Shown: positions 11,255 to 42,595 of the stretch, piece after piece
How the letters are laid out: each line of letters starts with the position of its first letter
How positions within the stretch are numbered: the first letter of the stretch is position 1
Assembly: GCA_046350735.1 (NCBI GenBank)
Contig: JAXLZU010000001.1
Location: 750,462-797,647, forward strand
Origin: Candidatus Saccharimonadota bacterium
GTDB lineage: Bacteria > Patescibacteriota > Saccharimonadia > CAILAD01 > BJGX01
DNA: 47,186 nucleotides
Direction of reading: 5' to 3'
The notes under the pieces: model-generated
Databases searched by the model: none
What the model saw: only the letters and a program-made list of their open reading frames with translations
Told to the model about the DNA's origin: nothing
Program-made: the position numbers and the translations under genes

Positions 11255-11260
11255 CTGGTA

Positions 11261-11657
11261 TGAGTTAGTTATAAGCCGAATTCTGTATCTCTCACCATTG
11301 TATGGTGAGAGACCACAATCATCTATCTTCCCGTTACCAGGTGTCCCGCACCATATTGTGGTGTGGGATCATGCGATATATCCTATTTCTCAAGCGAGTA
11401 ACTTGTCTGCCAAGGACAGAAGGATCCATTAATCTTGCAGCCAACAGGGTTTACCAGCTCTTAATTGTCACCAACTAAGATTGTGAGCTCTTACCCCACT
11501 CTTTTCACCCTTACCCCTCACCATCAAATGGTGAGGGGCGGTATAGTTTCTGCGGCACTTTCCCGTGGGTCACCCCAGGTTGCCGTTAGCAACTGCTGTA
11601 CTCTATGCTGTTCGGACTTTCCTCTCGTCTGGAGACGAGCGATTGTGCGCTAACTCA
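11261..11657 (-). ncRNA. rnpB: RNase P RNA (about 397 nt)
   Basis: Minus strand has the universal GAGGAAAGTCCG near the 5' end, GGAAAGTGCCGCAGAAA, GGTAAACCC and 3' ACAGAATTCGGCTTAT. The terminal P1 helix is TGAGTTAG/CTAACTCA. Confidence 0.95.
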
Positions 11658-11690
11658 CATTACTATTTTACTATAATATACCAATATTGT

Positions 11691-38366: not shown

Positions 38367-38747
38367 TCAGACGGATGAAGGTACACATTCACACAATACT
38401 TCATATGATGTTTTTACAGGCTTAGGTAAAAGATTAAATAACCGCAGTGCTTCGTAGTATTCCTGCCGAGAAGGAAACACATCATCAGCTTGTAGTGGAG
38501 TTTCGTGGCCATCTTGAAAGAAATTAACCAACATTGCAGGGTTCCAGGGAATCCAGCTGTAATTACCACCTTGCTTATTTAGACTGCTCTTAACAATAAT
38601 ACAGAGTCGCTTCTGAGCGCGCTCATCACCAGCAAGAGCGGCCTCTACAATAGTTTTGGCTAAACGAATTCTGGTGGTTTCACGATGTCCTAAGCAAACT
38701 TCTACAACTACATTGTGTGTACGAATCTCGCTAAGAGATCGGTCCAT
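38367..38747 (-). CDS. Hypothetical 126-aa protein
   Basis: Own promoter TTGACA-17-TAATAT near 38790-38817; divergent from tRNA-Arg. Confidence 0.6.
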   Translation of the reverse strand: MDRSLSEIRTHNVVVEVCLGHRETTRIRLAKTIVEAALAGDERAQKRLCIIVKSSLNKQGGNYSWIPWNPAMLVNFFQDGHETPLQADDVFPSRQEYYEALRLFNLLPKPVKTSYEVLCECVPSSV

Positions 38748-38848
38748 AATGAGCCTGCCTTGCTGTAAGAGGTGCGATTGCAGATACTATATTATAATTA
38801 TATCTGTTAGTTGTCAATTATTGATTTAGGGGTTACAATAGCTAAAAT

Positions 38849-38924
38849 GCCCTGGTAGCTCAGTGGATAGAGCGTCTCCGTCCTAAGGAGAGCGTCGGGG
38901 GTTCGATTCCCTCCCAGGGTACCA
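38849..38924 (+). tRNA. tRNA-Arg(CCT)
   Basis: GCCCTGGTAGCTCAGTGG...TCTCC-GTCCTAA-GGAGA...GTTCGATT...CCAGGGTACCA. Confidence 0.97.
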
Positions 38925-38984
38925 TTATTGTAATTATTTTATTTTTATAGTATAATTTGTCGGTCCATCTCCATAGATAAGGAT

Positions 38985-39638
38985 GTGATGCAAATGAATT
39001 CGACTTTGAATCATGCCTTGATGTCGCCAAGAGGAAATAATTTTTTTGAGTTTAATTGTCGGGCTTTTCGGCTCTGCCCCGCTAACGTAAAGGACATGTT
39101 GATTCTCGATGTTGGGGCTAGTAATCTTTCGCTATTTGGCAGGAATGCGGCCCTTCGGGGTGCGAGAGTTGTTGGTATGGATCCAACCTATAAAGATGTA
39201 CTGGTAGACCCTGATATTGCTATTGTTAATATAGAGATTAGTGTTGGTGCAGAAGAATATGATATTCCTACTCGAGAACTACCACCACTCAGCATGAATA
39301 TTGCTGCACTTGGTCAGTCTATTCCTATGCCAGATAATACGTTCGATATGGTGGTATCTTTTGCCTGTGTTGAGTACCTCCCCATAGAAGACTACGAAAT
39401 AACGTTGCGAGAGATGTTGCGGGTAGTAAAGCCTGGCGGTACTATCAGGCTTGCAACTGTTGGCCAAAACGATGAAGTACATCATTTTGGCTACTATAGT
39501 TATAGTTACAGGTATGTAGCGGCAGAATTTGAGAGAGCTCTTGAAAACCTAGAAGCAACAATTGAGTTTCACTTCTTCGATTTTCCAGAAGTTGGTAACT
39601 ATGGTCAACGTGGGGTTATCATTACAAAGCCAATCTAA
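38985..39638 (+). CDS. Class I SAM-dependent methyltransferase (Methyltransf_11-like)
   Basis: ILDVGAS, VVGMDP, PMPDNTFDMVVS, EMLRVVKPGG. Promoter TTGTAA-17-TATAAT (38928-38956); terminator at 39626-39653. Confidence 0.88.
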   Translation: MMQMNSTLNHALMSPRGNNFFEFNCRAFRLCPANVKDMLILDVGASNLSLFGRNAALRGARVVGMDPTYKDVLVDPDIAIVNIEISVGAEEYDIPTRELPPLSMNIAALGQSIPMPDNTFDMVVSFACVEYLPIEDYEITLREMLRVVKPGGTIRLATVGQNDEVHHFGYYSYSYRYVAAEFERALENLEATIEFHFFDFPEVGNYGQRGVIITKPI

Positions 39639-39689
39639 CGGGTTGGCTTTTTTATTTGCAAACTATAATAGTAATTGCTATTCTAAACG

Positions 39690-40078
39690 TATCTAGCCCA
39701 ACCCCTGGCTAGCGATGCACAGTAGGAGGATCTATCCTTGACAACACAACTCAGGTCGTCAAGAAGAGCCAACAACAAGCAGCCTGCTGGTTTTGCCAGT
39801 AGACAGCAAAGTCGTAAACGTCGCGCGCGATTCGCCCACCGTGGTGAACGACCTAGCGGACGTCGGCGCGACCCTGGTACAATTGCGATGGCTGAAGCCG
39901 AACCAATTGTGCTTGCGCAGCGTCGTTTGGCTCTTCAGTACTGATCTGAGTTTGCCCCAAGATGTTTTTCTAGTCGCCAACTAAACAAGTCTGGAGACCA
40001 AATGGAAAGCGGTTAGATAAAAGCAACGTCAGTACTTCCCGCTCATAGTGTAGTAATACATTCTGAGCGGGTTTTTTT
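39690..40078 (+). ncRNA. Candidate structured RNA or structured mRNA of unknown family
   Basis: GC-rich unit between a TTGCAA-17-TATTCT promoter and a cccgctca/tgagcggg-T7 terminator, with at least seven nested helices found by eye. Confidence 0.45.
39738..39944 (+). CDS. Arg-rich 68-aa small ORF
   Basis: AGGAGG SD at 39724-39729 and a TTG start; strongly basic. It could be incidental to an RNA gene. Confidence 0.45.
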   Translation: MTTQLRSSRRANNKQPAGFASRQQSRKRRARFAHRGERPSGRRRDPGTIAMAEAEPIVLAQRRLALQY

Positions 40079-40081
40079 GTA

Positions 40082-40666
40082 TTACTGGGTCATGTGTTTG
40101 TAGTGTATTGTTTCGTAGTCAAATAATTCTTCTGGGTTAAACCACAACTCTACTTCTAGCTTGGCTTCTTCTGGGTTTCCTGATGCGTGTACTAGATTAC
40201 GAATTGGTCGATTAGCCGTATTGGCATAGCCAGATGAGTCGAACGAGTAGTCTCCTCGAATTGTACCAGGATCGGCCTTTGAAGGTAGAGTAAACCCACA
40301 AATCTTTCGTACAACTTCAATGGCATGTGGACCTTCTAACACCAATACCATTACTGGGCTAGAAGTTAGAAAATCTACCAACCATCCCTGTAACATCAAC
40401 CCTATCTCTTTAGGATCATCTGTTCCTAGTTGTTCTTTAGCACTTAGACCTTGCTCTTTGTAATTATCGAGTGTTTTATTGGCCATACCCAAGATAAACT
40501 CTTCTCTATCTTTAGGATAATGTTTGTCAGCCAATGCTTTGTCTACTTGTACCATCTTAGCACCCACTAACTTTAGTCCAACTTTTTCAAACCGACCAAT
40601 TATTTCACCTACCAAGCTACGCTGCATAGCATCGGGTTTGATTATCACTAAGGTTTTTTCTATCAT
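40082..40666 (-). CDS. ndk: Nucleoside diphosphate kinase
   Basis: EKTLVIIKPD, GEIIGRFE, PGTIRGD, RNLVHASG (catalytic His). Confidence 0.96.
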   Translation of the reverse strand: MIEKTLVIIKPDAMQRSLVGEIIGRFEKVGLKLVGAKMVQVDKALADKHYPKDREEFILGMANKTLDNYKEQGLSAKEQLGTDDPKEIGLMLQGWLVDFLTSSPVMVLVLEGPHAIEVVRKICGFTLPSKADPGTIRGDYSFDSSGYANTANRPIRNLVHASGNPEEAKLEVELWFNPEELFDYETIHYKHMTQ

Positions 40667-40671
40667 CTCTA

Positions 40672-41940
40672 TTATTCCTCCATTAATTTTTCAAATTTAT
40701 CTTTGTCATCATAGGGGCCAATTATAGCTAGCCGCAAATCATCCATCTGTAGATATCGATGAGCCGCAGCCAGTACTGCACTCGGTGTAACCGCATCAAT
40801 TTCTGCTAGTGTTTCGGCTAACGAATGAATTCTGCCCGTTAAAAGCAGTTGGCTACCTAGTAAATCTGCCATAGCGGCATTACCCTCCAACCCCATAATA
40901 TACCTTCCTCTTAGCTGCTCTTTGGCCTTGGCAAGCTCTTTTTCTTCTACCTCAGTTGTTTGCACTCGTTTTAACTCATCACGAATTGCCCGAATAGCCT
41001 GGCTCACTTTCTCGTGATTTACTCCTGCATAAATTTCAAATTTACCACTATCACTAAAGCCAGTAGTACTCATATATATTGAGTATGCCAAGCCCTTTTG
41101 CTCGCGAACATTCAAAAATAGTCGCGAGCTCATACCAGATCCGAGCAATGTAGAAAGTACCTTCATCGGCATCTCATCGGCGGCATTGAGATAGGGTGCT
41201 CTACCGCAAACTACCAGATGAGCTTGGTTACTATCTTCATTATGTATATGTACTCGATGTTTTGAGAGGCCACCTTTTACGGGTGCAAACATCCTTGTTG
41301 TTCTATGGTGAATTTTCTGTAATAATCCTTTGGCTAACTCTACAACTTGACGGTGAGTTACATTGCCAGCAACAGATATAACAATATTATTCATGCCATA
41401 CATTTGCTCAAAGTAACTTTTAATAGTTTCTCTATCCATCGAACCAATTATGTGTTCATTACCAATCACGTTAGTTCGTAAGGTACTTTCTGGCCACAAA
41501 AGATCGCCAACAAAGTCATATACATAACGAGCCGGATCGTCTTTAAAAACCTTTATCTCTTCGAGAATTACCTTACGTTCTCTATCTATCTCATCTTGCT
41601 CGAGCAGTGGGTCGGTAATAATATCTGACAAAATATTAAAGGCTAAACCAAAGTAGTTTTTTGGTAATTTAATATAGTAACTGGTGTGGTCTTCGCTCGT
41701 ATAGGCATTCATATAGCCGCCTACCGAATCTATCTCTTCTGAGATAATCTGAGCTTTTGGCCGCTTGTGAGTGCCCTTAAAGAGCAAATGTTCGAGAAAA
41801 TGCGAAGCACCATATTCTTTTTGCATATCCTCATAGCGGCCGCCGGCTCCTACGAAGAAATTAACGGTAACACTCTCAGTATCTGACATGGTCTTGGTGA
41901 CTATTTTTAAGCCATTCGCCAGCTGCGTTATCTCATGCAT
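40672..41940 (-). CDS. M16 family zinc peptidase
   Basis: HFLEH inverted zincin motif, NAYTS, GMSSRLF..VREQKGLAY. The likely start is MHEIT at 41940. Confidence 0.93.
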   Translation of the reverse strand: MHEITQLANGLKIVTKTMSDTESVTVNFFVGAGGRYEDMQKEYGASHFLEHLLFKGTHKRPKAQIISEEIDSVGGYMNAYTSEDHTSYYIKLPKNYFGLAFNILSDIITDPLLEQDEIDRERKVILEEIKVFKDDPARYVYDFVGDLLWPESTLRTNVIGNEHIIGSMDRETIKSYFEQMYGMNNIVISVAGNVTHRQVVELAKGLLQKIHHRTTRMFAPVKGGLSKHRVHIHNEDSNQAHLVVCGRAPYLNAADEMPMKVLSTLLGSGMSSRLFLNVREQKGLAYSIYMSTTGFSDSGKFEIYAGVNHEKVSQAIRAIRDELKRVQTTEVEEKELAKAKEQLRGRYIMGLEGNAAMADLLGSQLLLTGRIHSLAETLAEIDAVTPSAVLAAAHRYLQMDDLRLAIIGPYDDKDKFEKLMEE

Positions 41941-42595
41941 TATGTTTGCCTTGTTTTTTGCGAGAACGGCGTACATTCTTTACTCCAGCGATAATTTGTG
42001 CGCGTCGTTCTTGGTCTTTTAGTAAGTGGAATAAGCTGGGGATTACCGAGAGTAAGACAATAATAATAATTGCCGGTATTAAATACTTATCAACATCTGG
42101 GATAACCGATCCTAAAAAGTATCCCAATAACGTAATCCCGACTGCCCAAATAAAAGCACCCATTACGTTAAAGAATAAAAATCTTTTGTATTTCATTTTT
42201 CCAGCACCAGCTACTATAGGTGCAAATGTACGCACTACAGGTATAAAACGAGCAAATATTATTGCTTTACCACCATGCTTCTCATAAAAACTCATCGCTT
42301 TATCTATATGGTTTTTATTAAACAGTAATGAGTCTTCTTTTTTGAATATTCTTGGACCAGCCGTTTTACCGAATTGATATCCTGCATTATCACCTGCAAT
42401 AGCAGCAATAAATGTAACCAGACATAAAAGAGCAATATTAAAAAACCCTTGGCTCGCCAAGAATCCTGCAGTAAACAATAAGCTGTCTCCTGGTAAGAAA
42501 AAACCTACCAATAACCCAGATTCTGCAAATACAATTGCAAAAATGCCAACATATCCAATAGTTCTAATTAAATTGTCTAGTTCTAGCCCAAACAT
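41933..42595 (-). CDS. DedA/VTT-domain membrane protein
   Basis: AESGLLVGFFLPGDSLLF, ARFIPVVRTFAP..AG. Confidence 0.93.
   Translation of the reverse strand: MFGLELDNLIRTIGYVGIFAIVFAESGLLVGFFLPGDSLLFTAGFLASQGFFNIALLCLVTFIAAIAGDNAGYQFGKTAGPRIFKKEDSLLFNKNHIDKAMSFYEKHGGKAIIFARFIPVVRTFAPIVAGAGKMKYKRFLFFNVMGAFIWAVGITLLGYFLGSVIPDVDKYLIPAIIIIVLLSVIPSLFHLLKDQERRAQIIAGVKNVRRSRKKQGKHNA

Follow-up and report, generated by a model that had tools for sequence, protein, structure and literature searches.

The mRNAs of hok-type type I toxins undergo fold-back inhibition through fbi and tac elements, and the Hok family encodes hydrophobic membrane peptides, with an antisense RNA and 3' processing as its means of control. 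In Staphylococcus aureus, the motif UCCCCUG within icaR's 3' untranslated region (3'UTR) pairs with the Shine-Dalgarno (SD) sequence, lowering initiation and forming a substrate for RNase III (Ruiz de los Mozos et al. 2013, PMC3868564). For the hbs mRNA of Bacillus subtilis, Braun, Durand and Condon (2017, PMC5737220) describe a 14-bp interaction of the 5'UTR with the 3'UTR which, together with initiating ribosomes, governs the access of RNase Y and RNase J1. Here, we describe a small transcription unit of a Saccharibacteria (TM7) lineage that can be set beside these systems. It lies in a 47,186-nucleotide stretch of Candidatus Saccharimonadota DNA (GenBank assembly GCA_046350735.1, contig JAXLZU010000001.1, positions 750,462 to 797,647 of the forward strand), hereafter the window, whose numbering is used throughout, and is placed by the sequence, the list of open reading frames (ORFs) and Pfam between a class I methyltransferase gene upstream and a convergent ndk gene downstream. 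We regard it as probably a monocistronic gene for a 68-residue, highly basic and clade-limited protein, with a conserved fold-back mRNA.

A sequence-only reading of the window had described this unit as a GC-rich, multi-helix element and had offered three interpretations, namely an undescribed large non-coding RNA (ncRNA), a dual-function RNA, or a translationally silenced small-protein mRNA organised like type I toxin messages. Each of the ten complementary segment pairs that it listed, as well as the promoter, SD, TTG start, 68-codon ORF and terminator, is present where it was placed, and the GC-rich tract is equally real (0.55–0.57 over 39700–39999 vs about 0.35–0.46 in the flanks). Set against related loci, the fold-back small-protein mRNA is the part of this interpretation that survives, whereas the large ncRNA is contradicted and the toxin-like organisation gains no support.

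Conservation of the reading frame

A word-indexed protein search found the ORF product to be identical in 26 contigs and returned one additional relative at 76% identity. The loci fetched through ndk showed the organism to belong to a Saccharibacteria lineage that is represented solely by metagenome bins. Among these loci, a third lineage, L014, was recovered by tblastn, and a fourth, L096, by a metagenome scan with a back-translated pattern, which yielded this single new lineage. The window, L001, L014 and L096 constitute group A, in all of which the gene is convergent to ndk; a second set, group B, comprises L016 (with its close relative L094), L018, L021 and L093.

Differences between the group-A sequences are concentrated at third codon positions. 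The window and L001 differ at 7, 7 and 37 sites of codon positions 1, 2 and 3, respectively, and further counts within the group are [14,11,34] and [19,6,33]. The ratio of nonsynonymous to synonymous change (dN/dS) was 0.04–0.26 across all six group-A pairs, with synonymous sites near saturation (proportion of differing synonymous sites, pS, 0.53–0.72). The frame is never broken in the four lineages, where indels occur solely in multiples of three, and the three strain single-nucleotide polymorphisms in the coding sequence (CDS; 39845, 39896 and 39917, from co-occurring strains) all fall at third codon positions. Mean pairwise identity fell from 81% (codon positions 1+2) through 70% (promoter) and 63% (leader) to 50% (codon position 3) and 32% (3'UTR). 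The GC richness of the unit follows from the composition of the protein, of whose 68 residues 15 are Arg, 10 Ala, 4 Gly and 4 Pro, with GC1/GC2/GC3 of 0.65/0.60/0.43 compared to about 0.54/0.34/0.35 in neighbouring genes.

Together, the intact frame, the low dN/dS and the lack of frameshifts in four lineages bear out the ORF when it is tested for conservation in homologs, and indicate that the unit is protein-coding and under purifying selection. They also highlight that codon-position statistics with as few as three or four relatives can decide between a protein and an RNA.

A predicted panhandle pairs the early coding region with the stop region

The RNAalifold consensus keeps the closing helix of the sequence-only reading (P2, 39763–39772 with 39927–39936) and adds a neighbouring helix that was not on its list, P1, in which CTCAGGTC (39750–39757) pairs with GATCTGAG (39943–39950), overlapping the stop codon. 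The resulting panhandle, which also appears in the single-sequence minimum free energy (MFE) fold of the window, comprises about 20–22 bp in two helices, and its 3' arm covers the last five codons, the stop TGA (39942–39944) and the first 8 nt of the 3'UTR.

We quantified this complementarity as the best RNAduplex that the early CDS (+4 to +45) can form with the region from −30 to +30 around the stop, scored against dinucleotide shuffles, and applied the same statistic to 49 other genes of the window as a background (mean z −0.16, standard deviation 1.08, minimum −2.81). The window duplex reached −33.5 kcal/mol (z −3.75), and the four group-A lineages gave z values of −3.75, −3.38, −3.71 and −3.52. 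Those of group B were −6.14, −5.34, −4.92 and −3.16 (L016, L018, L021 and L093; L094 was left out), such that all eight lineages (z −3.2 to −6.1) lie beyond every one of the 49 background genes. The matching 5' arm starts at +9 to +13 from the TTG in all eight (+8 to +12 for group B in RNAduplex numbering), and in each of them, of all downstream segments, the one centred on the stop codon pairs best with the early CDS. The ensemble pairing probability of the panhandle was 0.34–0.86 across lineages.

Within group A, the P1 core CTCRGGTC/GAYCYGAG is paired at 8/8 positions in all four lineages, with a compensatory A-U to G-C change in L096 and a G-U to G-C change in L001 and L096, and it is retained although the remaining 3'UTR is unalignable and the stop codon of L001 differs. 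P2 keeps 8/10 pairs in each of the other three lineages, including C-G to U-A double changes. Third codon positions are 71% identical inside the arms vs 46% outside, and 6/13 vs 11/54 of them, respectively, are invariant.

In group B, whose ndk is 69–75% identical, a basic ORF of 62–65 codons occupies the same site, convergent to ndk, with a GGAGG SD, a TTG start, a 5' hairpin, a terminator, and a size and charge similar to group A. L018 and L021 differ at [14,10,24] codon-position sites, with a dN/dS of 0.21. Comparison of the group-A and group-B proteins by hhalign gave no detectable similarity (probability 0.3%), and we therefore claim no homology between them. The group-B panhandles are likewise made of sequences unlike those of group A, with the 3' arm on or just after the stop codon, and L018 and L021 combine a common 5' arm with different 3'UTR arms. 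The predicted pairing between early coding region and stop codon persists even where the sequences of the lineages no longer align. The strongest signal of all was that of the L016 ORF (3143–3340, minus strand; 3001–3198 in L094), with a CDS fold z of −5.3, a panhandle z of −6.1 and a 10-bp helix, TACACAGATC/GATCTGTGTA, ending on the TAA stop codon. A small basic ORF near ndk in L041 was rejected as a further candidate, having a different context and no panhandle (z +1.5).

Taken together, the complementarity goes beyond chance, and comparison across these lineages indicates that the mRNA carries a conserved panhandle of the 5'-3' long-range type. The core of the fold-back proposal is upheld in this form, with the closing helix and its previously unlisted neighbour conserved and the pairing unusual in all eight lineages.

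Most helices inside the coding region are particular to the window

The shuffle scores show that the unit is structured beyond chance in this sequence. Its 389 nt fold at −140.6 kcal/mol vs −112.9 ± 5.7 for dinucleotide shuffles (z −4.9, with 0/100 shuffles as good), in agreement with the sequence-only reading; the reverse strand gives z −4.3. That reading had also seen no landmarks of transfer-messenger RNA (tmRNA), 6S RNA, signal recognition particle RNA or riboswitches, and the searches concur. Rfam, whose families include large ncRNAs such as OLE, ROOL, GOLLD and raiA, returned no match at gathering score over 39550–40150 and, at E<=10, three chance-level hits (14–19 bits vs thresholds of 39–66), and ARAGORN found no tmRNA at the unit. 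Over the whole window, the Rfam 15 matches were RNase P RNA and five tRNAs, all away from the unit; the RNase P RNA is a full-length match of bacterial class A (11256–11658, minus strand; 226.9 bits).

Relatives retain three parts of the fold, namely 5' hairpin, closing helix and terminator. In the four-lineage alignment, covariation is clear for the terminator alone, in which 100% of cells are paired and four pairs have changed on both sides. For H2–H7, 37/53 pairs are kept per relative, which is near our estimate for about 75% identity without selection for pairing. About 70% of pairs are kept per relative for H4–H7, and 3–5/8 for H7 (agtactga/tcagtact). H4, H5, H5i, H6, H6i and H7 were accordingly rejected as conserved helices, being present in the window and not maintained in relatives. 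The same applies to the pairing of the 5' end with the 3'UTR in the window MFE fold (UAUCUAGCC with GGUUAGAUA), which arises from a palindromic CTAG motif and is absent from the predicted folds of relatives. Scored by dinucleotide shuffle and by synonymous permutation, respectively, the CDS fold z was −2.8/−3.8 in the window, 0/0 in L001 and −0.9/−1.9 in L014. The whole transcript, on the other hand, gave z −2.9 to −5.1 in all four group-A lineages, and we read the terminator, 5' hairpin and panhandle as explaining much of this stability. Many of the inner helices are probably by-products of Arg, Ala, Gly and Pro codons.

These observations lend some weight to an ordinary small orphan gene, in which the panhandle and the other helices have no function and are products of Arg/Ala-rich, GC-rich coding in an AT-rich genome. 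The lineage-specific inner helices, the CDS-wide z of about 0 in L001 and +1 in L093, the GC excess driven by amino-acid composition and the small covariation counts all suit this explanation. We nevertheless consider it unlikely, because the early CDS-stop duplex beats both its shuffles and all 49 background genes in 8/8 lineages and is always formed with the best available partner, its arm always starts at +9 to +13, and the panhandle is rebuilt from other sequences in group B, with different 3' arms in L018 and L021. Moreover, conservation extends to the first 8 nt behind the stop codon, vs 32% identity in the rest of the 3'UTR.

Representation in community RNA

We examined seven RNA-labelled runs from two studies (wastewater, 2024–25, and activated-sludge metatranscriptomes, 2014), the RNA label itself being a guess. 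Contigs from these runs span 39609–40137 and leave the methyltransferase gene and ndk uncovered; in two of the runs, further contigs lie past 40785, within the peptidase gene. The start of one contig at 39687 and the end of another at 40075 agree with the promoter and terminator predictions. Run X8, for which the library type is unrecorded, covers the whole stretch evenly. This distribution suggests that the unit sequence is more abundant in the RNA-labelled runs than its immediate neighbours. A small protein that is unannotated or called 'hypothetical' appears to be among the organism's more abundant transcripts in wastewater communities.

Abundance relative to the methyltransferase gene and ndk, along with a transcript that is strongly structured in all four group-A lineages, could also be expected of a dual-function RNA, in which the structured body or the 3'UTR would give the mRNA a second role, regulatory or as a scaffold. 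We assign this possibility a low probability. The 3'UTR, which RNA-run contigs cover, is unconstrained in sequence (32% pairwise identity) and varies in length among lineages; synonymous sites outside the arms are near saturation; and neither a conserved single-stranded seed nor an Rfam match was seen.

An orphan protein with a putative nucleic-acid-binding helix

The encoded protein has 15 Arg, 2 Lys and 4 Asp/Glu among its 68 residues, an isoelectric point (pI) of 12.0, a net charge of about +13 and a grand average of hydropathy (GRAVY) of −1.18, and its sequence contains no hydrophobic segment. No family was found in Pfam or NCBIfam (E<=1 to 10), and no chain, including ribosomal ones, in a PDB profile search (E<=10). 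An exhaustive HMMER search of 1.84 billion representatives returned the protein itself and one spurious match, the repeat protein P0003, which was rejected as a relative. Where the group-A protein or its group-B counterparts carry a database name, it is 'hypothetical protein', and a literature search for a Saccharibacteria-specific ribosomal protein gave nothing relevant. By these searches, the protein is an orphan of a narrow Saccharibacteria clade.

AlphaFold2 returned a model with a predicted local distance difference test score (pLDDT) of 65 and a predicted template modelling score (pTM) of 0.26, too poor for fold comparison, with short amphipathic or basic helices at residues 19–34 (basic) and 57–66. 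Its most confident block, residues 21–30, lies within the first of these. We regard the protein as largely disordered. Its invariant core is RQQSRKRRA.FAHRG...RRRDPGT, and, judging from composition, it most likely uses the Arg-rich helix (residues ~19–34) to bind nucleic acid, RNA or the ribosome.

These properties are difficult to reconcile with a type I toxin-like module, in which processing activates a translationally locked toxin mRNA and an antisense RNA keeps it under control. Such a module would account for a small self-contained gene with a long-range fold-back, a weak start and an SD that is perhaps partly paired. The product here is hydrophilic and highly basic without a hydrophobic helix, the SD lies outside the fold-back, and a scan found no convincing pair of promoter and terminator on the minus strand of the unit, the RNA contigs being strandless. 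In addition, the gene occupies a fixed housekeeping locus beside ndk in every lineage and is apparently highly expressed in situ. We therefore deem a toxin-like module very unlikely, and the proposed resemblance to type I toxin messages finds no support in the basic product, the uncovered SD or the lack of an evident antisense partner. Hardly credible is a new class of non-coding structured RNA with a fortuitous ORF, to which the GC-rich island in an AT-rich genome, the fold z of −4.9 and the promoter and terminator of its own might have pointed: the large ncRNA is refuted by the protein-type substitution pattern (third-position excess, dN/dS 0.04–0.26, indels in threes, conservation that tracks codon position), by the conserved ORF, SD and start codon, and by inner helices that are not conserved, with an RNAalifold covariation term of just −1.9 kcal/mol.

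Expression signals and neighbouring genes

The coordinates of the unit and of the two adjacent genes are collected in Table 1.

Table 1. Features of the transcription unit and its flanking genes in the window.
Feature	Position	Strand	Description
Class I methyltransferase gene	38985–39638	+	Own terminator at 39626–39650
Promoter	39656–39684	+	−35 TTGCAA (39656–61), 17-nt spacer, extended −10 TGcTATTCT (39676–84); read from sequence
5'-proximal leader hairpin CTAGCC/GGCTAG	39693–39712	+	5–7 bp in four group-A lineages
Translation initiation region	39724–39740	+	SD AGGAGG (39724–29), spacer CTATCC, TTG start (39738–40)
CDS, 68-aa Arg-rich protein	39738–39944	+	Intact frame in four lineages, third-position excess
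Panhandle 5' arm	39748–39772	+	P1 AACTCAGGTC (39748–57), P2 GAAGAGCCAA (39763–72); codons 4–12, from +11
Panhandle 3' arm	39927–39952	+	P2' TTGGCTCTTC (39927–36), P1' GATCTGAGTT (39943–52)
3'UTR	39945–40037	+	First ~8 nt conserved; remainder unconstrained in sequence and length
Intrinsic terminator	40038–40078	+	CCCGCTCA/TGAGCGGG 8-bp stem, inner hairpin, then T7
ndk (nucleoside diphosphate kinase)	40082–40666	−	Convergent to the unit

The promoter, TTGCAA-17-TATTCT, matches the consensus at 8/12 positions, for which reason it escaped an automated promoter scan, and is extended at the −10 element by the TG at 39676–39677. Both TTGCAA and TGnTA(T/G)TCT are kept in all four group-A lineages. The terminator was likewise unseen by an automated scan because its loop measures 18 nt; its T-run lies 3' of the stem on the plus strand only. 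In relatives, the leader hairpin shows one C-G to U-G change, and in L096 it reads CTAGC/GCTAG and is displaced in the alignment; group B has a hairpin of unlike sequence at the same leader position.

We take the TTG as the start codon because a TAG stands in frame at 39723 and because, in the window, the ATG used by the gene caller for L001 falls in another frame. The SD precedes the TTG by 8–9 nt in group A (8 nt in the window), and the SD, the CTATCC spacer and the TTG are invariant across the four lineages despite near-saturated synonymous sites. GAGGA (39726–39730) is able to pair with TCCTT (39735–39739) in a weak SD/anti-SD mini-hairpin, and the predicted unpaired probability of the SD was 0.04–0.28 in group A, the window value coming from a transcript shortened at an internal T-run. 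The aligned sequences show that promoter and terminator belong to the unit itself and are conserved, that its SD is strong and that its TTG does not vary.

The window, L004, L006–L008 and L014 carry the methyltransferase gene, which L001, L003, L005, L009, L012 and L096 lack. In L005 (2662–3000) and L012 (1470–1800), the last ~45 nt of the gene and its terminator are retained directly after tRNA-Arg; as this 3' remnant persists, the absence of the gene from these strains seems to reflect a deletion there and not a gain in the window. The tRNA-Arg(CCT) region of the window (38848–38925) is covered in the RNA-labelled runs by contigs whose flanks mismatch the window, for which reason an identical tRNA-Arg sequence seems to be carried there by other organisms or in other genomic settings. 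A 126-aa ORF without a Pfam match (38367–38747, minus strand) is called at one and the same position, upstream of tRNA-Arg, in every related locus that extends so far, and looks like a second conserved orphan of the neighbourhood.

Typical bacterial nucleoside diphosphate kinases measure about 140–150 aa. The window protein has 194 aa and is matched by the Pfam NDK model in two stretches, a long form that is common to the fetched Patescibacteria loci. A long ndk of this Patescibacteria type (48–65% identical) was also seen on nine contigs (L037, L039, L042, L047, L067, L074, L083, L091 and L092) titled Gammaproteobacteria, Weeksellaceae, Clostridia, Symbiobacterium, Nanoarchaeia or Aenigmatarchaeota, which suggests mis-binned or mislabelled contigs of metagenome-assembled genomes or, possibly, gene transfer. 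Further downstream, the peptidase M16 ORF (40672–41976, minus strand) and the DedA/VTT-domain ORF (41933–42595, minus strand) overlap by 44 nt (41933–41976) in the ORF list; as the called genes abut in L001, the M16 start of the window may lie further downstream than listed.

Discussion

The features that are conserved suggest how such a message could work. The 5' hairpin, the terminator hairpin and the panhandle would close the short mRNA into a compact, nuclease-resistant form, which would fit the abundance of the unit. The position of about +11 is roughly where the mRNA enters the initiating ribosome. A helix beginning there, downstream of a weak TTG and beside an SD able to pair with its spacer, would restrain initiation, and opening of the panhandle would depend on translation, so that the stability of the message would be tied to its translation, as in B. 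subtilis hbs.

Several points weigh against a gene with a conserved fold-back mRNA. The excess folding of the CDS in its entirety does not recur in relatives (z 0 in L001 and +1 in L093), each relative has 1–2 mismatches in P2, and the synonymous constraint in the arms is a trend (Fisher p = 0.08). Covariation counts are few (three pairs with double changes) because group A has only four lineages. The grouping of A and B as one system rests on synteny and architecture. The community data are assembled contigs that carry neither strand nor true depth, from RNA-labelled runs that can contain some DNA. More generally, the protein, the RNA ends and the fold are predicted by computation, and the roles of the panhandle and of the protein are inferred.

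A bolder version is unlikely. It would make the unit a closed-loop mRNA, whose helix from ~+11 to the stop renders survival or ribosome re-loading dependent on translation, and its product a new Arg-rich nucleic-acid-binding family, possibly a Saccharibacteria-specific ribosome or nucleoid protein that autoregulates through its conserved leader. The protein is a candidate lineage-specific ribosome or nucleoid component in reduced-genome bacteria. If the panhandle does couple stability to translation, it would carry 5'-3' mRNA communication, of which few bacterial examples are known (hbs, icaR), into the candidate phyla radiation (CPR) and to pairing inside the coding region.

Comparison with known systems

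A short Arg-dense helix (SRQQSRKRRARFAHRG) in an otherwise disordered chain of net charge about +13 likens the protein to the RNA-binding peptides with an Arg-rich motif (lambda N, HIV Rev/Tat) and to small basic proteins of the ribosome or associated with it. The protein differs from them in having no match in Pfam, NCBIfam or PDB, and its RNA binding is putative only. Like the hok-type messages, the unit is small and self-contained, with a full-length mRNA closed by 5'-3' pairing into a compact, stable form; unlike them, it encodes a hydrophilic product of pI 12, and neither an antisense RNA nor a mok-like reading frame was seen.

With icaR, the unit has in common an intramolecular 5'-3' pairing within one mRNA (PMC3868564), and the ~22-bp coaxial stack of P1 and P2 would, we infer, be long enough to serve as an RNase III substrate. 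The 3' arm of icaR is an anti-SD deep in a long 3'UTR that masks the SD (PMC3868564), whereas the long-range helix of the present unit does not include the SD, and its 3' arm runs over the stop codon. The best-studied analogue is the hbs mRNA. As described (PMC5737220), hbs is likewise a short, abundant, monocistronic message for a small basic protein of nucleic-acid-binding type, with a structured 5' end and an end-to-end pairing of ~14–20 bp. Its helix, in the same account (PMC5737220), joins two UTRs and overlaps the RNase Y site of the leader, whereas that of the present unit connects the early CDS (+11 to +35) with the final codons and with the stop; the encoded protein, moreover, is unrelated to HU. 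Placed beside these systems, the unit is a new gene for a small orphan protein, and its mRNA shows a conserved variant of an architecture of known kind.

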